DNA of 53,169 nt, taken from Candidatus Omnitrophica bacterium UBA6249 (GTDB taxonomy: Bacteria; Omnitrophota; Gorgyraeia; Gygaellales; Profunditerraquicolaceae). The notes beneath the pieces are model-generated. The model made no database searches and was not told the origin of the DNA. It was given only the letters and a program-made list of their open reading frames with translations. The stretch covers positions 2,328 through 55,496 of the forward strand of contig DJVT01000001.1 in assembly GCA_002441305.1 (NCBI GenBank), written 5' to 3'. Position numbers and translations under genes: made by a program. Position 1 is the stretch's first letter; the number at the start of each line of letters is the position of its first letter. This document shows positions 349 to 45,434 of the stretch, in pieces.

Positions 349-462
349 GGAGTACTTTTACCGAGGGGGAAACACCCGTTCCCATTCCGAATACGGCCGT
401 TAAGCCCCTCAGGGCCGATGGTAGTTTAGTCGTAAGGCTATGCGAGAGTAGGTCGGTGCTCC
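349..462 (+). rRNA. rrf: 5S rRNA
   Basis: ~114 nt with 5S hallmarks CCCATTCCGAA, GCCGATGGTAG and ATGCGAGAGTAGG. 5' GGAGTAC pairs with 3' GTGCTCC (helix I). Lies ~80 nt after the 23S end. Confidence 0.85.
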
Positions 463-471
463 TTTAATTAA

Positions 472-510
472 AATCCCGCTATTCATTAAGTTGAGTAGCG
501 GGATTTTTTT
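472..510 (+). terminator. Intrinsic terminator of the rRNA operon
   Basis: ATCCCGCTA / TAGCGGGAT 9-bp stem followed by a T7 run directly after 5S. Confidence 0.8.
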
Positions 511-528
511 ATTTCAAGGCGTTGCACT

Positions 529-538
529 TTATTGGAAT
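529..538 (+). repeat. Left copy of 10-bp direct repeat TTATTGGAAT bracketing the AT-rich island
   Basis: Exact 10-mer also at 4500-4509. The pair coincides with the compositional boundaries. Confidence 0.3.
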
Positions 539-563
539 ATCCTATATTGGATTATCTTTTTAG

Positions 564-591
564 TTGACATCATGTTTCGGTAAGCTAAAAT
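564..591 (+). promoter_or_regulatory. Sigma70-like promoter for the island genes
   Basis: TTGACA (564-569), 16-nt spacer, TAAAAT (586-591), ~100 nt upstream of the HD gene ATG. Confidence 0.4.
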
Positions 592-689
592 AAAATCAGC
601 AATTTATTATATTTACTCCAAGCGTCGCAACCTGAGGGACGGTTTCTGGGAAATAGAGGCCGCCCTTTTTTATTTTAAAAGGAGGATAT

Positions 690-1886
690 ATGCTAAGAAA
701 GCCATTGTTGTTAAAGATTTATGAAATGGCTAATATGCAACGTTGGAATGACAAAATAAGGCCAGTAGAGTTGCGCGAATTAGATAAGCAGGCGCACAAA
801 ATGATTATCGCCTATGTCTTAGGTAAATTTGAAGAAAATAAAAAAGTAGGATTTAGCTGGGCTGAGATTATTGAGGGTGGGATATTTCAGTTCTTCCACC
901 GACTAATACTTACCGATTTAAAACCTCAATTAGTTCTTAAAATAAAGGAGAATCCAGTTAAGTATAAAGAGTTGAACGATTGGGTGTATAAACAAGTCGA
1001 GTGTTATTTTCAGCCAGTAGGGGATGATTTTTGTAAACGGTTTCAGAATTTTCTTGATAATCTTCCTGCTCCTAAGAATAATATTAATACTAGTATTTTG
1101 CATGCAGCTCATTTTTACGCGACTAAATGGGAATTTAATATTATCGAGCGCACTAATCCAGAGGGTTATGAGATACCTGAAATAAGAAAACGGCTCCAAG
1201 ATGAACTTGAAAAGAATTATAGTTTAGGCGGAATAACTTATTTAGCCTTGTATTCTAAATTACGCAATTTTATTGATTTATGTGGTGAGCTTAGATTTCA
1301 GATACGATGGGGGCATTTGCATAGGATTCCTAAAACTTCTGTAATTGGCCACATGCTAATAGTAGCAATATTGACTTACTTTTTTTCTCTAGAAATGAAA
1401 GCATGTGAAAAAAGAAGGGTGAATAATTTTTTTACTGCTTTATTTCATGATTTACCTGAAGTGCTGACTAGAGATGTGATTAATCCCGTGAAAAAGTCAG
1501 TTCCTGGACTCGATGAAATAATAAAAAGCTATGAAAAAAGCGAAATGGAGAAAATATATAATTTAATTCCAGCAGAATGGCATAATGAAATAAAGGTTTT
1601 TACTGAAAATGAATTTAGCAGTATTGTAAAAGTAAGAGAGGAAATTCGGGAAATCGGGTCGAGTGAGATTAGTAAAAAATATAACGATGATTCGTTTTGC
1701 CCTCGCGATGGAGAAATAGTTAAGGCTTCTGATGATCTGGCCGCGTTTTTAGAAGCCTACTTAGCTTTAAAGAATGGTGTAAATAATGTTCAATTGGTAG
1801 ATGCCAAAAACGTATTAAAAGAAAAATATAAGAGCAAGATTATTTCAAATATTAAATTTGGCGATATATATGCGGATTTTGATTAA
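690..1886 (+). CDS. HD-domain phosphohydrolase, tandem YfbR-like (5'-deoxynucleotidase-like) modules
   Basis: AGGAGG 8 nt upstream of the ATG. C-terminal module has RW..H...SVIGHML...LFHDLPEVLTRDVINPVKK, matching the YfbR-type H...HD...D pattern. N-terminal module repeats the pattern but has HR in place of HD (FFHRLILTDLKP). Confidence 0.7.
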   Translation: MLRKPLLLKIYEMANMQRWNDKIRPVELRELDKQAHKMIIAYVLGKFEENKKVGFSWAEIIEGGIFQFFHRLILTDLKPQLVLKIKENPVKYKELNDWVYKQVECYFQPVGDDFCKRFQNFLDNLPAPKNNINTSILHAAHFYATKWEFNIIERTNPEGYEIPEIRKRLQDELEKNYSLGGITYLALYSKLRNFIDLCGELRFQIRWGHLHRIPKTSVIGHMLIVAILTYFFSLEMKACEKRRVNNFFTALFHDLPEVLTRDVINPVKKSVPGLDEIIKSYEKSEMEKIYNLIPAEWHNEIKVFTENEFSSIVKVREEIREIGSSEISKKYNDDSFCPRDGEIVKASDDLAAFLEAYLALKNGVNNVQLVDAKNVLKEKYKSKIISNIKFGDIYADFD

Positions 1887-1982
1887 AGTTATATGGCTGA
1901 AGTTAATTACTAGTTAACTACTAAATAATGGGTGGAGGTATTTGAAAACTGGTATTTTGTAATTTATTGAAGAGGAGAGAGT

Positions 1983-2543
1983 ATGAATATCTTATTGAAT
2001 ATTTGGAATTGGTTTAAGTTTAACGATTTGCCTAATTGGATCGTAGTAATTTTTAGTATTGTAGTTTGGCCAATAGCATTATTTTTATGGAATAAGCGAA
2101 CAGTGGGGGCGGTCAGAAATTTGCAAGTTGTTGTTACCCCGGCAGGTGGGGTTATCCCCACGGGAGAGCAGTGTCCATATTTAGTACTAAAATTTAATAA
2201 CAATACTGGAGAAGTTGTTTATTTATCAAATTTAGCGATTAAAGTAAGCTACATAGTGAAAGCGCATCCTAATGCGGATAAAGATATTTCGACTGGAAAC
2301 CATGTTTTAAAATTTGCTCTTAAGGATGGTGATAATTTTGATAAGTTGCAAGCTACTATTAATACAGGAGAAAAGGTAACAACAGGTTTGCCACTATCAA
2401 ACGCTTATTCCTCGGCCGAAGTTGTAGAGCTGATGAATCAGATGGGGAGCCATAGGAGAAATTGTTTAATATCAAAATTTTTTATATTACGTTTTGATTG
2501 CATGATTGGTAGAGAGTTAAAGCGAGTTAAGTTTAAATTTTAA
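1983..2543 (+). CDS. Single-pass membrane protein, unassigned beta-rich C-terminal domain
   Basis: GAGGAGAG RBS. N-terminal hydrophobic helix WIVVIFSIVVWPIALFLW. No recognisable motif in the remaining ~150 aa. Confidence 0.6.
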   Translation: MNILLNIWNWFKFNDLPNWIVVIFSIVVWPIALFLWNKRTVGAVRNLQVVVTPAGGVIPTGEQCPYLVLKFNNNTGEVVYLSNLAIKVSYIVKAHPNADKDISTGNHVLKFALKDGDNFDKLQATINTGEKVTTGLPLSNAYSSAEVVELMNQMGSHRRNCLISKFFILRFDCMIGRELKRVKFKF

Positions 2544-2602
2544 AATAAATTTCGGTTACGTATTGCTAATTATATATAAATATTATGTTCCTATTTTATT
2601 AA

Positions 2603-4042
2603 ATGAAAAATCCTAAGGTATTTATATCGTATAGCTGGTCTTCGAAGAGCCATTGTGATTGTATTCGTTCGTATGCGGAACGTCTTATAAACGATGGAGT
2701 GGATGTTATTCTTGATCAGTGGGTTCTATCTGAAGGACAAGATAAATATGCTTTTATGGAAAAGATGGTTACTGATAACGATGTAACGCACGTGTTAATT
2801 TTCTCTGATCAACAATATGCGAATAAAGCAGATAGCAGAGAGTCTGGAGTTGGAACGGAATCTCAGATTATTTCTAAAGAAATTTACGATAAGGTTAGTC
2901 AAAATAAATTCATACCTATTATTTGCGAAAAAAATGAAAATGGAGAACCTTATTTGCCGGTATTTCTTAGATCTCGTATTTGGATCGATTTTAGTTCTCC
3001 AGAAGTAGCAAATGATAATTGGGAAAAACTGTTACGGCTTCTTTATAATAAACCCATGCATGAGAAACCATTATTAGGTAAACCGCCCTCTTTCTTAAGC
3101 AGTACAGAAACCCGACCATCATTGCCGACTATAGGCAAGTTTAATACTCTACGTGATGCGTTATTAAATTCTAAACCGACAATTAATTTTTGCAGAAAAG
3201 ATTTTATTGACTCGGTTATTGAATTTATAGATTCTTCAAGAATCCGTAAGGCCCCTGAAGTTGAACATAGAGATGAGAAGGTTATAGAAGATTTGCATAA
3301 ATTACTTCCAATCCGTGATCAGGTAATTGATTGGTTTTTAATTGAATCAAGTTTTGCACAATTGCCAAAATTTGATAGCATGCTCATAGATTTTTTAGAA
3401 AGGCTTCTTTCTTTAAAATATAGGCCTGAAGAAGTAACGAGGTGGGAGACCTGGTGGTATGATGCGCAGAATATCTTTATATATGAGATATTCCTTTATT
3501 TTATTGCAGTTTTAATTAAAGAAGATAGATTTGAGAGCTTGAAGAACATATTTACTACTCGTTTTTTACTTCATGATTCAGAGGTTCGAAGCGGGAATGA
3601 ATTTGTTGATTATTCTAATTTTTACGGTTATTCAGAAGCGCTTAATGGGTATAGGAAAAAGCGTTTAAATCTTAATCGTATTAGCGTTGTAGCGGATATC
3701 GTTAAAGATAGGGCAACGCGTAATGATATTAAATTTGATGATTTGATGCAGGCAGAATTATTGTTAGTACTTGTTTCTTTGCTTTCAGTCAATTATCTTT
3801 GGTATCCTAATATAATAATATATGCTGATTATAGACGATTTCCTTTTTTTATTCGTTCTGCCCAGCATAAATATTTTAGAAAAATAGCAATTGTTACTGG
3901 CGCCGAAACTGGTGATATACTCCGTGCAAGATTTACAGAAGGATGTGAGAGGCATGCTGTAAAAAGTTGGCAAGTTTTATTTTATGCACACATTTCTTTG
4001 CCCAACTTAATGAATATGAAAGAACTAGATACAATTAATTAA
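2603..4042 (+). CDS. SEFIR/TIR-like domain protein with ~330-aa unassigned C-terminal domain
   Basis: N-terminus KVFISYSWSS..H...I.SYAERLINDGVDVILDQW....G.DKYAFMEKMV...THVLIFSDQQY...GVGTESQII matches the SEFIR/TIR_2 beta-alpha pattern. The rest is helical with no motif I recognise. Confidence 0.7.
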   Translation: MKNPKVFISYSWSSKSHCDCIRSYAERLINDGVDVILDQWVLSEGQDKYAFMEKMVTDNDVTHVLIFSDQQYANKADSRESGVGTESQIISKEIYDKVSQNKFIPIICEKNENGEPYLPVFLRSRIWIDFSSPEVANDNWEKLLRLLYNKPMHEKPLLGKPPSFLSSTETRPSLPTIGKFNTLRDALLNSKPTINFCRKDFIDSVIEFIDSSRIRKAPEVEHRDEKVIEDLHKLLPIRDQVIDWFLIESSFAQLPKFDSMLIDFLERLLSLKYRPEEVTRWETWWYDAQNIFIYEIFLYFIAVLIKEDRFESLKNIFTTRFLLHDSEVRSGNEFVDYSNFYGYSEALNGYRKKRLNLNRISVVADIVKDRATRNDIKFDDLMQAELLLVLVSLLSVNYLWYPNIIIYADYRRFPFFIRSAQHKYFRKIAIVTGAETGDILRARFTEGCERHAVKSWQVLFYAHISLPNLMNMKELDTIN

Positions 4043-4269
4043 ACTTAAGAATAATAATTTTCTATTTAAATTAGATAGTGTATTTAATCAAGAGTTTTAT
4101 TTAAGTCAGGGACATTTTCAAATTCAATTTTACCGGATTTTTTGGATTATAATAAATTTATGCTTTATTAAAGTTGTTACAGTTTACAGCTAAAATTTGG
4201 CTGATTGTTTCTTTTGAGCCTTTTAACCTAATCCTCAATATATCTGTGGGCAAAAACGGGAAGGTTACT

Positions 4270-4458
4270 ATGGAATCTAAAAATACCTGCATTTGTACCA
4301 CAATTCTTACTAGCATTGGAATCTTGCTATTTTTAGCTGCAGCTCTTGATATTTCTCCATTATCTGACAATCTGATTATATTTATTGCTTTAGCCTGTTT
4401 TATAGTTAGTGCGCTAATTAAGAAAATATCAAAAGGTATGAGTAGCTGTTGTAAATAA
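4270..4458 (+). CDS. Small two-helix membrane protein (62 aa), hypothetical
   Basis: GGGAAGG before the internal ATG. Two hydrophobic stretches (ILTSIGILLFLAAAL, LIIFIALACFIVSALI). Competes with a minus-strand ORF at 4158-4475. Confidence 0.4.
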   Translation: MESKNTCICTTILTSIGILLFLAAALDISPLSDNLIIFIALACFIVSALIKKISKGMSSCCK

Positions 4459-4499
4459 TCAATAAGGAGATACACCCCGCGCTAATTGGCCCCTGGCGC

Positions 4500-4509
4500 T
4501 TATTGGAAT
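4500..4509 (+). repeat. Right copy of TTATTGGAAT, in the loop of a 7-bp hairpin (CTGGCGC/GCGCCAG, 4493-4517)
   Basis: Exact match to 529-538. Lies at the AT-rich to GC-normal transition. Confidence 0.3.
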
Positions 4510-4575
4510 GGCGCCAGTGTGCGTTTGGTAGCGCAAATTGCGTGAGCGTCGTCTCCGTAGACGAGGAGGTGCCAC

Positions 4576-4854
4576 ATGTCTAAGTTCTTCATGTACGGCA
4601 AGTACACCAAGGATGCGCTGGCGGATATTTCAAAGGATAGGACGAGCAGGGCGTTGGAGGTAATTGCCAAGGCCGGCGGCAAGGTCAATTCCATGTACGC
4701 GCTTTTAGGCAAATATGATGTTGTGCTGATCGCGGATTTTCCCGGGGTTTCCGAGGTAATGAAGGCTTCGGTTGCTTTAAACAGGCTGACCGGTATTTCC
4801 TTCGTCAGTTTCCCGGCAATTTCAGTGGAGGAATTCGATAAGGTTATGGGGTAG
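4576..4854 (+). CDS. GYD domain-containing protein
   Basis: 92 aa with GKYD..L.ADFP...M.ASVAL...G pattern typical of the GYD family. GAGGAGG RBS. Confidence 0.75.
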   Translation: MSKFFMYGKYTKDALADISKDRTSRALEVIAKAGGKVNSMYALLGKYDVVLIADFPGVSEVMKASVALNRLTGISFVSFPAISVEEFDKVMG

Positions 4855-5000: not shown

Positions 5001-5858
5001 ATGAAGAAAACATTTAGGATAATAGGGATTTTGGCTGTTTGTATAGCTGTTGCCTGGTTTATTTATGCACGTGCAGGCAATAACAGGGTCGCCGTTTCTA
5101 AAGACGGCACAAAGATCGTTTATTCCGTCTACGGCAAGGGTGAGCCTGCCCTGGTGTTCATACACGGCTGGTGCGGCAGCCGCGCTATTTGGGATAAGCA
5201 GGTGCCTTATTTTGCCAAGAAGTATAGGGTAATTACCTTAGACCTGGCAGGGCACGGTGCATCCGGGCGCAACAGGCAGGAGTACACCCAGGAGGCCTTT
5301 GGCGAGGATGTAGCTGCAGTGGTTGAGGCGGCAAAGGCGGATAAGTTAATCCTTATAGGCCATTCCATGTCGGGCACAATAATATTGGAGGCAAATAAGC
5401 TCATCAAGGATAAGGTAATCGGCCTTGTTGCGGTTGACACCCTGGAGAACTTTGAGTATGTGGCTACCCCGGAGGACAGGATAAAGTACATCGAGCCCCT
5501 GAAGGAGGATTTTGTAAAGAACTCAGGCCCGTTTATGCGGGAGATGTTTACCAAGGACGCTGACCCCAAGCTGGTTGAGACGGTGGTCAGGAACGTGGCC
5601 CGGTCAGATCCCAAGATCGCAGTTAATGTCATAGAGCACTATTTCGATACCCCGGTTATTCCGCTTTTGGCCGATGTGGATGTCCCTTTGTGGTGCCTGA
5701 ACGCCGACCTCTGGCCGGATTATCCGGAGATAAACATCAAGTATCTTAAGTCGTATCATTTAAGGGTAATGCCCGGCCTGGATCATTTCCTGATGGTCGA
5801 GGCGCCGGATGAGTTCAACCGGCAGTTGGATGATATAATCAAGCAGATTGCGAAATAG
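5001..5858 (+). CDS. Alpha/beta hydrolase with N-terminal membrane anchor or signal
   Basis: HGW oxyanion region, GHSMSG nucleophile elbow, C-terminal DH pair. Confidence 0.8.
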   Translation: MKKTFRIIGILAVCIAVAWFIYARAGNNRVAVSKDGTKIVYSVYGKGEPALVFIHGWCGSRAIWDKQVPYFAKKYRVITLDLAGHGASGRNRQEYTQEAFGEDVAAVVEAAKADKLILIGHSMSGTIILEANKLIKDKVIGLVAVDTLENFEYVATPEDRIKYIEPLKEDFVKNSGPFMREMFTKDADPKLVETVVRNVARSDPKIAVNVIEHYFDTPVIPLLADVDVPLWCLNADLWPDYPEINIKYLKSYHLRVMPGLDHFLMVEAPDEFNRQLDDIIKQIAK

Positions 5859-40822: not shown

Positions 40823-40860
40823 AATCCAGAACCCTTGAGCAGACGGGTTCTGGATTTTTA
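40823..40860 (+). terminator. Intrinsic terminator of the feo operon
   Basis: AATCCAGAACCC / GGGTTCTGGATT 12-bp stem followed by T-rich sequence. Confidence 0.85.
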
Positions 40861-40870
40861 TTGGATAAAA

Positions 40871-43735
40871 ATGTTTAAGTTCGGGAAGAAAATTATTTCA
40901 TTTTTAATCTGCTGCAGCCTTATCTGGCAGCAGAGCGGGATTTGCCAGGCTGCAGGAGAAGCAGACCTTTCCGGGGTTTTTACCGGGTCCTGCGCTGCGG
41001 TGAACGGGAAATACCGAAGCGCGCATTTAAGGGGAATCTCTTATGATGCGTCTTTCGGCAAGCTGAGATTGCTGCTGGAGAGGGGCGAAGCGGGCGGTTT
41101 AAAGGATGAGAGCTCCGAATTATTCAAGTATTTCCTGCTTGGGCTGGCGCTTCCCGGAAGTTCTTTCTGGGTAAACTTAAGCCCGGGCGGCAAAGATGAG
41201 ATCATCGATCCTTTTCTTGAGGCCACGGACATGGGCAGGCTGTTTCTTGAATCCGATGTAAGGCTTAAGAAGGATACCGCGCGCATGCTCTCCCCGGAAA
41301 CAGCGGAGGGGAGGGAGTACTGGGAGAAGTTTTACCGGAAGGCGGAAGAAATCTACGGTTTCCAGGCCCCTTCCTTTTCCATAAATACGCGCACTTGGAT
41401 TGTCCCGGATGAAATCATCATCAGGGAAAACAAAGACTCGGCTTATATATACAAGGCAACCCTGAAGGTGATGCTGGAACAGGATTATTTGGGCATAAAA
41501 GGGAAAGAGAGTTATAAAGATACCCAATGGGGGGAGCTTAATGAATATTCCGCCGGGTTGATGCGAAAATCGATCATCCCCGGCTTGAACCGGAGAATAA
41601 ATAATTCTCAGGAATACGCATCTTTACGCCAGATTTATTATTCTTTGATTATGGCGCAGTGGTTCAAGTCCAGATTTGCCGGGGAGGAGGGGGAATACTG
41701 CGCTCTTATCGACAGCAGGGATCTTAACGGGTTAAGGTCTGCCCGCCGCTGGTCGAAAGACACCTATTTTTCCCAGTACCGGAAATCCTTTAACAAGGGT
41801 GAGTTCGAGATAAAAGAGCAGAGGTATGGTTTTTCAGGACGGGTTTTACGCAGTTACCTGAGCGGGGGGATAAATATCGCGCCGGTCATCCGGAGCGACA
41901 ATGTCGGCAAGCAGGTTGTTGACCGTAACGGCGGCAGCACGCTTCTTTTGAGCGGTTGCGGAGAGGCAGTGGGCACGGGCAGGGAGGTCAGGGTTGAGAT
42001 AACATCCGGCAGGGAAGCCGGGATGGTTGACGGAGAAGGGCCCCGGGGCAGTCCTATCGCGCAGGAAAAAATTGCTGACGGCACAAATAATAATTCTTCC
42101 GGCGCCCTCGGGGGAATAGGCCGTAAGATAACCCGCGGCCTGCTCATCGGGGCGGTTACCCTGATGCTCCTTTTTATCCCTTCTTCTTCAGTCCAGCGTT
42201 TTGATGCCCCGCCTGATTCTGCGCCGGGCATTACCGCAAGTTATGATGAGTATGACCCGGATAACCCCCGGGAGGTCCTGGAGACACTGGAGGATTATCA
42301 AAAAAGGCTTATCCAGGCCGAGGAGACGATAGAAAAACTGGAGGAGGAAAACGCTCTCCTTCTCGGCGGAGGAGAGGAGGCGGTAGAGGAGGGCGAAGAG
42401 GAGGAAGGGGGAGGGAATAAATGGCTGCTGCTTGGAGGAGGAGCCATTGTATGGGAAACCCTGCATACGCTTATTTTATTTTTTGCAGGCCGTCTTTCGA
42501 CAAAGCTGAAATTGAAGAAGAAAAAGGCAGGAGGACAGGAAAAAAGCGGGGAAGACGGGCACGGGAATCATAATCATATCGAGGAACTTATCTCAAAGTT
42601 TAAGGCCTGGAAAGATTCCCGCCCGGGAAGGAGGAAAGTGGATATTCCGCAGGGGGATAATCCTAAGGCTGGGATAAGCGAAGAAGAGATAGGGATAGTT
42701 ATCGAGTCTTTAAGGGATTCCGGGACCGCTTATGGGGCCAGGCTTGTTTCTTCTAAAAAAATAGATTTAAGATCGAGGATACGTTTTATCCATGATGAAA
42801 TCGGCTTTGATATCGTAAAAGGAGAGGGCAGGGGGCTGCTTGGCAGAAGAACCAGCACCTTGAAAGCGCAGAAGATATTGCTTGAGAGCCACGGGCTGCC
42901 TCTCAATACGCCTAATTTTCTTTTATCAAGGGAACATTTTATCAAAGAAGAGTTCAAGAAGGCCGGGAGATTGCCGGGCTGGAGCGGCCTTAACGCAGGG
43001 GAAAGGCTGGCTTTATTACACCATTTTTGCGAGGTGTACGGGTTAAGCCCTTTCCGGGCGGCGGACAGGCGGTGGTCCGGCCTGCTAAGTTATTTTAGCC
43101 TTCCGGACGACAGAATAGAGTATACGTGGCGCGCAATAGATCTTATCCAAAGATACGAGCTGTCCCGTTTCAGCGCCGATCCGGATCTCCTCAGGACGGG
43201 GTTCCGACTTTCCAAAATAAGGGCTGCTGTCCAGGCTTTGGGATCGCCTGTTACAAATTCTATGGAATCTTACCTTAGTCCCGAAGGATTCGAACTTTAC
43301 AGGGAAAGAGAGGGCGGAGAATCCCGTATGGACGGGCGGAAACGCGGGGAATACGGAGGTATCGATTTACGCAGCCTTCCCATAAACAGGCAGGCGCTGG
43401 ACAATCTAAGCACGGCCGGACTCCCCGCATCAGCCGACCGACTCGAGACATTGAATATCAACCGGGAGCTGCGCGATATTTACAGATTGATTGACGCGGG
43501 GATAACGCCGTCCCCGGAGAGGATACGCGAGTTCGTTCAGGCTTGCTGCTTAAAGGATGAAATCGCCACTAACCAGGACAGGATCATGCGTTGTATAGCC
43601 GAAATAATAAGGTTGGACGAGGAGAGGCTGTGCCCGACAGATATTATGCTGCGGGATATTCTTGTAGTGCTTGAGTCGAGCAGGAACAGCCGGGAGTTAA
43701 GGGGCGCTTTTTTCGGCATGAGCGCCGGGAGTTGA
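40871..43735 (+). CDS. Large envelope protein (954 aa), unassigned: signal peptide, ~350-aa exo-domain, two TM helices flanking an acidic coiled coil, ~450-aa C-terminal region
   Basis: Signal MFKFGKKIISFLICCSLIWQQSGICQAAG. TM LLIGAVTLMLLFIPSS and WLLLGGGAIVWETLHTLILFFAG. EEAVEEGEEEEGGG acidic tract. No catalytic motif recognised. Confidence 0.6.
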   Translation: MFKFGKKIISFLICCSLIWQQSGICQAAGEADLSGVFTGSCAAVNGKYRSAHLRGISYDASFGKLRLLLERGEAGGLKDESSELFKYFLLGLALPGSSFWVNLSPGGKDEIIDPFLEATDMGRLFLESDVRLKKDTARMLSPETAEGREYWEKFYRKAEEIYGFQAPSFSINTRTWIVPDEIIIRENKDSAYIYKATLKVMLEQDYLGIKGKESYKDTQWGELNEYSAGLMRKSIIPGLNRRINNSQEYASLRQIYYSLIMAQWFKSRFAGEEGEYCALIDSRDLNGLRSARRWSKDTYFSQYRKSFNKGEFEIKEQRYGFSGRVLRSYLSGGINIAPVIRSDNVGKQVVDRNGGSTLLLSGCGEAVGTGREVRVEITSGREAGMVDGEGPRGSPIAQEKIADGTNNNSSGALGGIGRKITRGLLIGAVTLMLLFIPSSSVQRFDAPPDSAPGITASYDEYDPDNPREVLETLEDYQKRLIQAEETIEKLEEENALLLGGGEEAVEEGEEEEGGGNKWLLLGGGAIVWETLHTLILFFAGRLSTKLKLKKKKAGGQEKSGEDGHGNHNHIEELISKFKAWKDSRPGRRKVDIPQGDNPKAGISEEEIGIVIESLRDSGTAYGARLVSSKKIDLRSRIRFIHDEIGFDIVKGEGRGLLGRRTSTLKAQKILLESHGLPLNTPNFLLSREHFIKEEFKKAGRLPGWSGLNAGERLALLHHFCEVYGLSPFRAADRRWSGLLSYFSLPDDRIEYTWRAIDLIQRYELSRFSADPDLLRTGFRLSKIRAAVQALGSPVTNSMESYLSPEGFELYREREGGESRMDGRKRGEYGGIDLRSLPINRQALDNLSTAGLPASADRLETLNINRELRDIYRLIDAGITPSPERIREFVQACCLKDEIATNQDRIMRCIAEIIRLDEERLCPTDIMLRDILVVLESSRNSRELRGAFFGMSAGS

Positions 43736-43963: not shown

Positions 43964-44072
43964 TATACGGAAAGGAGGCACCATGAAAGAAGAAGGGGGT
44001 CGGATAGGCCCAGATGGGAAAACAGGGTAAAGATTATATTGCTAAAACTTGTCAATGAAGGAGGTAAATGAA

Positions 44073-45434
44073 ATGTTCTTAAGAAGCATATTAAGCTGCA
44101 GTCTTGTTTTAGGGGTGCTGGCCACAGGCGTCCCCGCGTTCGCGGATGAGGGGGCGACTTCGGCGGAACTCAAGAAGATGAGAATCCGCCTTGAGGCGCT
44201 TGAGCAAAAGGTGGCCGAGCAGGATTCTTATATAGCAAAGCAGAGGACTGAATCCGCAGGTCAGAAGGAAAAGATCGCCCAATACGAGTCCCAGCTTTCC
44301 CGTTTCGAGGAAAACCTGCATCGTATGCCCGGTCAGCCTATCCAGTTGTTAGAGGGGCTGGAGTTGGGTGTGGGGGGTACGGTTATCCTGCAGGGCGCGG
44401 ATAACAGCAATTACCGCGACGGGGATACCGAGAAATCCTCCCGGGCGGATGCCTCGTATTCGGCGGATGTAACTCTTTCCAAGGAGTTCGAGGAGGTAGG
44501 CGGCAGGGCATTTTTGCATCTTGAGGCTGGCCAGGGTTCAGGGCTCGAAGACAACCTTATTGTTTATTCCAACGTGAACAGGGATGCCGGAGACAGCGAG
44601 GCCAAAGCCGAACTTACCGAGTTTTGGTACGAGCAGGATCTTTTTAAGGATAAGGCGGTTGTCACTTTCGGTAAACTCGACTCAAGCGCGTATTTTGACC
44701 AGAATGAAGCCGCTAATGACGAGACCAGCCAATTTCTGGGGAGGATTTTCCGTAACTCGCCTGTTATCGAGTTTCCGGATAATGGAGCCGGAGTGCGTTT
44801 TGCCTGGCTTCCCGTTGACTGGCTCGAGTTGGGATACGGCGTATTTGACGGGACGGGGAGTTGGGAGGATATAGGGGACAGCCTGTTCAATATCGGGCAG
44901 GTCCATTTTAAAACAAACCTTTTCGGCCTTTCCGGCAACTACCGTTTTTATGCCTGGAATAACAATGCGGACCATATAAAATGGCTGGATTCGGGCAAAA
45001 CGAAAGAATCATCTTATGGCCTTGGTTTGAGTTTCGACCAGAAGCTGAATGATGCGGTTACCCTGTTTGCCCGTTACGGATGGCAGAACCCCGAGGCGTA
45101 TAATCCCGAAATAACCGCCGCGGACGGCTCGAATTACTCTCTCGAGCAATCCTGGAGCGCAGGCTTTCAGGTAGAGGGCGCTTCCTGGGGCAGGGAGAAG
45201 GATGTGTTCGGTTTTGCTGTAGGCCAGATCATGCCATCCGATGACTACAAGAAGGCAAATAACCTGTCCGCCAAGACCGAAGGGCATCTGGAGGCCTATT
45301 ATAATATACACATTAACGACCATCTTTCGGTCAGCCCGGATGTGCAGTACATCTGGAATCCTTACGGTAAAGATGTAGCGGGCAATACGGGAGGCATATT
45401 CGTAGGAGGATTGAGAGCGCAGGTGGATTTTTAA
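44073..45434 (+). CDS. Outer-membrane porin (OprB-like beta-barrel) with N-terminal coiled coil
   Basis: AGGAGG 8 nt before the ATG. Signal ending PAFA. Heptad region ELKKMRIRLEALEQKVAEQ.... Alternating beta-strand pattern. Terminal ...RAQVDF (C-terminal Phe). Confidence 0.65.
   Translation: MFLRSILSCSLVLGVLATGVPAFADEGATSAELKKMRIRLEALEQKVAEQDSYIAKQRTESAGQKEKIAQYESQLSRFEENLHRMPGQPIQLLEGLELGVGGTVILQGADNSNYRDGDTEKSSRADASYSADVTLSKEFEEVGGRAFLHLEAGQGSGLEDNLIVYSNVNRDAGDSEAKAELTEFWYEQDLFKDKAVVTFGKLDSSAYFDQNEAANDETSQFLGRIFRNSPVIEFPDNGAGVRFAWLPVDWLELGYGVFDGTGSWEDIGDSLFNIGQVHFKTNLFGLSGNYRFYAWNNNADHIKWLDSGKTKESSYGLGLSFDQKLNDAVTLFARYGWQNPEAYNPEITAADGSNYSLEQSWSAGFQVEGASWGREKDVFGFAVGQIMPSDDYKKANNLSAKTEGHLEAYYNIHINDHLSVSPDVQYIWNPYGKDVAGNTGGIFVGGLRAQVDF

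Follow-up and report, generated by a model that had tools for sequence, protein, structure and literature searches.

Among the described anti-phage systems, the closest to the locus considered here is a single-gene system that takes its name from the SEFIR domain. This system was described from Bacillus sp. NIO-1130, and it protects Bacillus subtilis against phi29 (Millman et al., 2022). Its members were selected by the rule that the SEFIR hit be N-terminal and stronger than the TIR hit, and homologues were reported from more than 20 phyla, with Methanosarcina among the hosts (Millman et al., 2022). SEFIR is a single-protein system, in which the N-terminal SEFIR domain depletes NAD+ (Osterman et al.). 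In the tested SEFIR protein, contacts between SEFIR domains need the Asp residue D40. The locus is a low-G+C islet near the start of a 53,169-nucleotide (nt) stretch of contig DJVT01000001.1 from Candidatus Omnitrophica bacterium UBA6249, here called the window. Its three large genes encode, in order, a 398-amino acid (aa) protein with an HD phosphohydrolase domain, a 186-aa single-pass membrane protein and a 479-aa SEFIR protein. A first-pass annotation, made from the DNA alone, had proposed that these genes and a fourth, small one form an undescribed immune module based on a TIR domain. Based on the present analysis, it seems likely, with a probability of about 0.75, that the locus is a horizontally acquired accessory islet that carries a canonical single-gene SEFIR system together with independent passenger genes.

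Judged by its sequence, the 479-aa protein (2603-4042, + strand) is a member of the known single-gene SEFIR defence family. This assignment is based on a full-length profile match, on a SEFIR hit stronger than the TIR hit and on homology to a SEFIR domain of known structure. The PADLOC model for bSEFIR, PDLC03957, matches residues 1-478 of the protein over positions 35-385 of the 412 in the profile (E = 5.5e-104, 347 bits). The match span takes in the C-terminal domain that had been called long and unknown, and with this end-to-end match to an existing model the proposal of an undescribed multi-gene TIR module is not supported. A literature search on 'bSEFIR' by that name returned nothing relevant. 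The N-terminal domain of the SEFIR/TIR clan, in contrast, was read correctly from the start. In Pfam, SEFIR (E = 1.5e-16, residues 4-123) is a stronger match than TIR_2 (E = 2.8e-12), and residues 4-158 match the sequence of the Bacillus cereus SEFIR structure 5Y8E/5Y8F, including its GVGTE motif (E = 2.4e-30, a sequence match). The protein is thus predicted to consist of a SEFIR NADase domain at about residues 4-158 and a family-specific C-terminal domain that extends to residue 479. Two acidic residues, D38 in ILDQW and E86 in the previously noted GVGTESQ motif, which begins at residue 82, are invariant in 32 aligned homologues. They align with ILDRW and GVGTET of the B. cereus protein; D38 is a candidate counterpart of D40 in the Bacillus sp. 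NIO-1130 protein.

Homologues of the SEFIR protein number more than 1,800. In one-per-species genomes there are 169 relatives, which are distributed over many bacterial phyla and a Methanosarcinales archaeon, and the nearest relatives are 74% identical. The single-gene system of Millman et al. that the first-pass annotation had mentioned is the one to which this protein belongs. The idea of an immune locus survives for the SEFIR gene, which is an immune gene, while the HD and membrane protein genes do not stand as components of its system. By analogy with published work on the family, the C-terminal domain would sense an infection cue, and in response the N-terminal SEFIR domains would come together and split NAD+, with ADP-ribose and nicotinamide as the products. 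The loss of NAD+ would starve the phage or the infected cell, and the infection would be aborted. Both NADase activity and phage protection are to be expected of this protein from its membership in the family.

The SEFIR gene has no conserved partner gene. In 80 genome loci, each from a different species and examined with at most 10 kb on either side, relatives of the HD or membrane protein were not found beside SEFIR either by tblastn or by hidden Markov models (HMMs) of the two families. The same was true of four further contigs (L093, L094, L154 and L155), in which SEFIR is 69-74% identical, and a close SEFIR relative from Candidatus Zapsychrus also lacks both genes. With L093 and L094 added, the set for the analysis of neighbours comprised 82 loci, of which 64 have at least 2.5 kb of upstream sequence and 59 at least 2.5 kb downstream. 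Clustering revealed no neighbour family within 3 kb on either side that recurs in more than five of these 82 loci. The few recurrent neighbours include type I restriction-modification subunits and a SIR2-like protein, which were identified by reading the sequences and not by a profile search. SEFIR is flanked in L093 by the C-terminal domain of a type I restriction HsdR with an S24 peptidase and by NACHT, in L094 by YgjP/RES, and in L155 by what were judged by eye to be transposase-like fragments. In L154, SEFIR (72% identical) is followed after 41 nt by a gene for a NUDIX hydrolase (1681-2124) and then by a DUF3800 gene. NUDIX enzymes are able to hydrolyse ADP-ribose, the product of SEFIR. 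As a parallel to the HD gene, this neighbour was considered and rejected, since it recurs in no other SEFIR locus.

The searches in the other directions led to the same result. Neither a SEFIR nor a membrane protein gene was found near the HD relatives in 59 HD loci, and there is no conserved synteny around HD, with at most seven of the 59 loci sharing a neighbour family. Similarly, neither SEFIR nor HD was found on the contigs of homologues of the membrane protein, for which five contigs were available from six known places. All the contigs on which the three genes were found together encode an identical SEFIR protein and are copies of the same islet. The supposition that HD, membrane protein and SEFIR homologues would be neighbours in other genomes was thus not borne out in any of these sets. 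The first-pass annotation had itself named such a lack of adjacency in other genomes as grounds for refutation, and on these grounds the idea of a module is refuted to the extent that comparison of genomes allows.

The islet itself is real, sharply bounded and foreign, as indicated by the drop in G+C, the sharpness of its edges and the contrast in G+C at third codon positions (GC3) with its chromosomal neighbours. A three-segment maximum-likelihood fit places the change-points at 462 and 4465, in agreement with the AT-rich island that had been described as running from the terminator of the ribosomal RNA (rRNA) operon to about 4470. The spot counts given for it at the time, 15/60 G+C at 2581-2640 and 37/60 at 5281-5340, are exact. 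The G+C content of the islet (462-4465, no strand) is 0.327, compared with 0.509 for the remaining 48.7 kb of the window. The standard deviation over 4-kb windows of this remainder is 0.0097, and the islet lies about 19 standard deviations below it. The GC3 of the three large genes is 0.29, 0.31 and 0.25, versus 0.66, 0.63 and 0.72 in the next three native genes, and the edges are sharp to within tens of bases. On the left, the islet is bounded by the intrinsic terminator of the rRNA operon (470-507, + strand), which has a 16-bp stem and a T-run; on the right, it abuts a native GYD-domain gene. No integrase, transposase or tRNA was found within the islet, and the earlier remark that it holds no mobility gene was therefore accurate. 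A search for flanking direct or inverted repeats or attachment sites yielded short AT-rich chance matches only. The closest DNA relatives of all three genes (75-79% identity) are on contigs with a G+C content of 0.31-0.37, a composition consistent with the transfer of one block from a low-G+C lineage. In the proposed history, this block of about 4 kb would have been acquired horizontally, and the HD and membrane protein genes would have travelled in it as passengers independent of the SEFIR system.

The first of the presumed passengers (690-1886, + strand) encodes a 398-aa protein with an N-terminal all-alpha domain and a C-terminal YfbR-like HD phosphohydrolase domain, as judged from Pfam, the PDB and a structural model. 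HD_3 (PF13023) matches residues 198-369 with an E-value of 8.6e-23 and 81.5 bits against a cut-off of 22.5, the YfbR-like family of Pfam matches residues 194-369 with an E-value of 8e-18, and the sequence matches in the PDB are YfbR and OxsA. The metal ligands H221, H253-D254 and D348 are invariant, and the LFHDL motif pointed out in the first-pass annotation is present at residue 251. The model has a predicted local distance difference test score (pLDDT) of 83, and its best fold matches are YfbR, lin2634 and OxsA. Their target TM-scores of 0.6-0.68 correspond to about one domain, and Foldseek does not specify which half is matched. Orthology with YfbR was considered and is excluded by the double length of the protein and by its score of 37.1 bits against the NCBIfam equivalog NF003009, far under the cut-off of 122.

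The HD protein had been described as a tandem or duplicated HD enzyme. This description is correct for the C-terminal half, and a second HD domain in the N-terminal half was not confirmed by Pfam, hhalign or HMMs. The recognisable HD domain is confined to residues ~193-369 in Pfam, in the PDB sequence search and by HMMs. No Pfam HD model matches residues 1-189, and an HMM of the N-terminal half does not match YfbR. Similarity between the two halves was not detected by hhalign, and reciprocal HMMs of the halves gave no significant match. A Smith-Waterman alignment of the halves compared with shuffled sequences was also non-significant (z = 2.4). A motif recognised post hoc, RW..H..[HQ][DR]..LT.D, occurs at residues 18 and 206 with similar spacing; it is no more than suggestive, and could reflect an old duplication after which the catalytic Asp was lost. 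The N-terminal ~190 residues are predicted to be entirely helical. In their degree of conservation they equal the catalytic half, and they contain the invariant motifs KQAHKM, TDLKPQ and TKWEF; no family was detected for this domain.

The HD family is a large one, and the homologues that are 55-65% identical number more than 5,700. Many are from the Nitrospirota and Thermodesulfovibrionales and many lie on megabase contigs, and the G+C of the HD gene is that of its surroundings in most of the 59 other loci. The size and conservation of the family argue for a cellular role rather than one in defence. The only PADLOC match of the HD protein is weak (E = 0.0079), and a literature search on YfbR-like enzymes in defence islands returned nothing relevant. 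The nearest relatives, which are 78-81% identical, are on low-G+C contigs. On one of these contigs, L086, the known abortive-infection gene AbiGi is located 3' of HD (1211-1900); L125 is from the same organism, at 99.85% identity. In L152, an ORC/CDC6-like ATPase is found in this position (1341-1733), with a Pfam score of 22 bits that is under the 27-bit gathering score. Together with the islet, these make three independent contexts and suggest that the HD gene is an anchor beside a site of variable cargo in the donor lineage. The 3' flank of HD in that low-G+C lineage would then hold accessory or defence genes of varying kind: the membrane protein with SEFIR, AbiGi or the ORC/CDC6-like ATPase.

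The second presumed passenger (1983-2543, + strand) encodes the 186-aa single-pass membrane protein. An AlphaFold model made with seven sequences (pLDDT 74) has a short amphipathic helix, a transmembrane helix at residues 18-37 and a beta-sandwich domain at residues 46-185. In this model, the positively charged residues K38, R39 and R45 after the transmembrane helix suggest that the beta-sandwich may be cytoplasmic. The protein has no family in Pfam, NCBIfam or PADLOC. An indexed search found seven homologues, an exhaustive profile search of 1.84 billion representatives found 119 clusters, and there was no match in viral contigs, phage records or plasmids. When the model was compared by Foldseek with the PDB and BFVD, only generic Ig-like or appendage-type sandwiches were recovered, with TM-scores of at most 0.46. 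The members of the family are always in variable accessory contexts. On the five contigs with homologues, the neighbours are an alpha/beta-hydrolase, a polytopic membrane protein, an ORF6N/KilA-N-like gene (identified by eye) and a DUF1670 helix-turn-helix gene. The alpha/beta-hydrolase is encoded on L081, which carries the closest homologue (78% identical); this 298-aa protein (844-1740) begins 78 nt after the membrane protein gene, has a GHSMGG motif and resembles Palm_thioest/PGAP1, and it has no PADLOC match. Another representative of the family, P0265 (380 aa), is twice the usual length, and its extra N-terminal region opens with a hydrophobic segment of its own and has no Pfam match.

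The properties of these two proteins bear on an alternative reading, that of a miniature defence island. Under this reading, the genes of the membrane protein, and possibly of the sub-clade of HD proteins found here, would serve in defence or abortive infection in their own right, as genes not yet described and independent of SEFIR. In favour of this, the membrane protein family is rare and patchy and occurs in variable contexts in low-G+C accessory DNA, AbiGi and the ORC/CDC6-like ATPase lie 3' of close HD relatives, and the neighbours of defence genes are often defence genes too (Millman et al., 2022). However, PADLOC offers no credible match for either protein. The membrane protein has the fold of a generic beta-sandwich, in which no signature of catalysis or of pore formation is seen, and the protein is absent from the phage and plasmid collections searched. 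Moreover, the conservation of HD over thousands of genomes, with native composition, fits housekeeping, and for its close sub-clade the known independent contexts are only three. On balance this alternative is unlikely, although it survives better than the others. It is similarly doubtful that the membrane protein represents a new, rare and stand-alone defence or abortive-infection family, or else a lineage-specific modulator of SEFIR, or, as a separate matter, that the 3' flank of the HD sub-clade is an unnoticed hotspot of defence cargo.

Several features of the locus nevertheless weigh against a single-gene system among passengers. The three large open reading frames (ORFs) are co-oriented, lie close together at distances of 96 and 59 nt, and are uniform in composition, and no terminator was detected between the HD, membrane protein and SEFIR genes. 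They may be co-transcribed here, and a functional coupling in this one lineage may be compatible with the comparative data alone. The contexts available for the membrane protein extend to at most 2 kb, with many relatives on short contigs. In addition, no other PADLOC-recognised defence gene is present in the islet, which is thus not a classical defence island.

The spacing, the uniform composition and the lack of a predicted terminator between the genes would also fit a lineage-specific multi-gene variant of the SEFIR system. In such a variant, which is in essence what the first-pass annotation had proposed, sensing or signal generation would fall to SEFIR, the membrane protein would act as an effector or modulator, and the HD protein would either be an effector or clear the signal or ADP-ribose. 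The NUDIX gene of L154 likewise hints at nucleotide hydrolases beside SEFIR. This explanation is nonetheless quite improbable. HD or membrane protein genes accompany SEFIR relatives in none of the 80 loci and none of the four further contigs, the NUDIX gene recurs near no other SEFIR, the HD family is elsewhere mostly native and chromosomal, and in experiments a single gene has proved sufficient for the bSEFIR family (Millman et al., 2022; Osterman et al.). Least credible of all, and very improbable, is that the low G+C is a local quirk of native genes beside the rRNA operon: the lack of a mobility gene, tRNA or flanking repeat to mark an insertion would agree with this, but the GC3 of 0.25-0.31 versus 0.63-0.72 in the adjacent genes, the sharp edges and the finding that each of the three genes has its nearest relatives in other organisms, on contigs of low G+C, speak against it.

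The remaining features of the islet concern its ends. Of the four co-oriented genes that had been listed, the three large ones are real, all having homologues elsewhere, but the fourth is completely overlapped by an antisense ORF. On the + strand, a possible 62-aa two-helix membrane peptide would be encoded at 4270-4458, with an ATG at 4270 that has GGAAGG 5 nt upstream; an alternative TTG start at 4174 would give 94 codons with the same end at 4458. On the - strand, an ORF of 105 codons (4158-4475) covers this frame, and it is the version chosen by public gene calls. Tests of codon usage and of G+C by codon position fail to separate the two strands. Searches by tblastn beside SEFIR relatives recovered only the + strand ORF itself, and no homologue of either ORF was found in any examined locus besides copies of the same islet. 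The fourth ORF may be a non-gene.

At the other end, the islet had been credited with a promoter of its own. A sigma-70-like match is present at 564-591 (+ strand; TTGACA-16-TAAAAT, 11 of 12 positions), and it is a consensus match only; across the whole region, promoter-like matches are fewer than in shuffled sequence. That this site drives four genes was not established, and a terminator-like hairpin with a U-run intervenes (634-675, + strand). This stable hairpin, with its stem at 640-662 and a minimum free energy of -26.3 kcal/mol (z = -2.5), is followed by UUUUUUAUUUU and is located between the promoter-like site and the ribosome-binding site of the HD gene. Because of this position, read-through from 564-591 into the genes is not a given. 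The hairpin is a candidate for an attenuator, for the end of a short transcript or for a second terminator of the rRNA operon. A riboswitch in the HD leader was considered and rejected, since the Moco match scored 18.9 bits against a gathering score of 36 (E = 0.56) and no Rfam family was credible.

The window begins with the 3' end of the 23S rRNA (1-269) and the 5S rRNA (348-464). Outside the islet, its genes are ordinary chromosomal ones, such as those for DAHP synthase, PGI, Dus, FeoB, RecG and a two-component system. A G+C-rich hairpin, CTGGCGC...GCGCCAG, is present at 4487-4520 (+ strand), tens of bases to the right of the islet edge, with the GYD gene downstream of it; the folding of 4455-4580 is unremarkable (z = -1.0). 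Further along, a 966-aa ORF (40835-43735, + strand) with no Pfam match at E <= 1e-5 is located just upstream of a gene for an OprB-family porin (44049-45434).

In conclusion, the locus matters little in itself: the defence family that gains one environmental member here has already been catalogued, and standard tools already recognise it. It does carry a caution, in that a tight, co-oriented and compositionally uniform cluster in a foreign islet can mimic a system encoded by an operon and yet be a single-gene system with passengers. It also provides two modest leads: a family of membrane-bound beta-sandwich proteins beside accessory genes, and a widespread family of 395-aa HD proteins with a conserved extra N-terminal domain.

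A comparison with known systems places the locus further. Like type I and type II Thoeris, the islet encodes a STIR-clan domain expected to act on NAD+. In contrast to Thoeris, it lacks ThsA and any SIR2, SLOG or Macro domain, and none of the four proteins has a Ths match in PADLOC. Moreover, the effector of SEFIR is the NADase domain itself, which shares a polypeptide with the presumed sensor (Osterman et al.). The HD protein shares with YfbR, the 5'-deoxynucleotidase of E. coli, and with OxsA and HD_3 the fold of its C-terminal half and the H...HD...D metal-binding motifs. However, YfbR is a single-domain protein of about 200 aa, whereas the HD protein is twice as long, with an extra conserved all-alpha N-terminal domain of about 190 aa that has no HD signature. 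The SAMHD1-like dGTPase/dNTPase defence enzymes are, like the HD protein, phosphohydrolases of the HD superfamily, and they act on nucleotides. The HD protein differs from them in that it belongs to the HD_3/YfbR-like sub-family and not to the dGTPases, has no credible defence match in PADLOC and is found mostly in native contexts. The closest comparison is with the SEFIR system as included in DefenseFinder and PADLOC (Millman et al., 2022). The 479-aa protein differs from the described members as a divergent environmental one, known here from its sequence and located in a tiny islet rather than in a large defence island. It is otherwise the same: it has an N-terminal SEFIR domain and a family-specific C-terminal domain, a stronger hit to SEFIR than to TIR, no conserved partner, a wide and patchy distribution that includes the Methanosarcinales, and a match to the HMM of the family over its full length.

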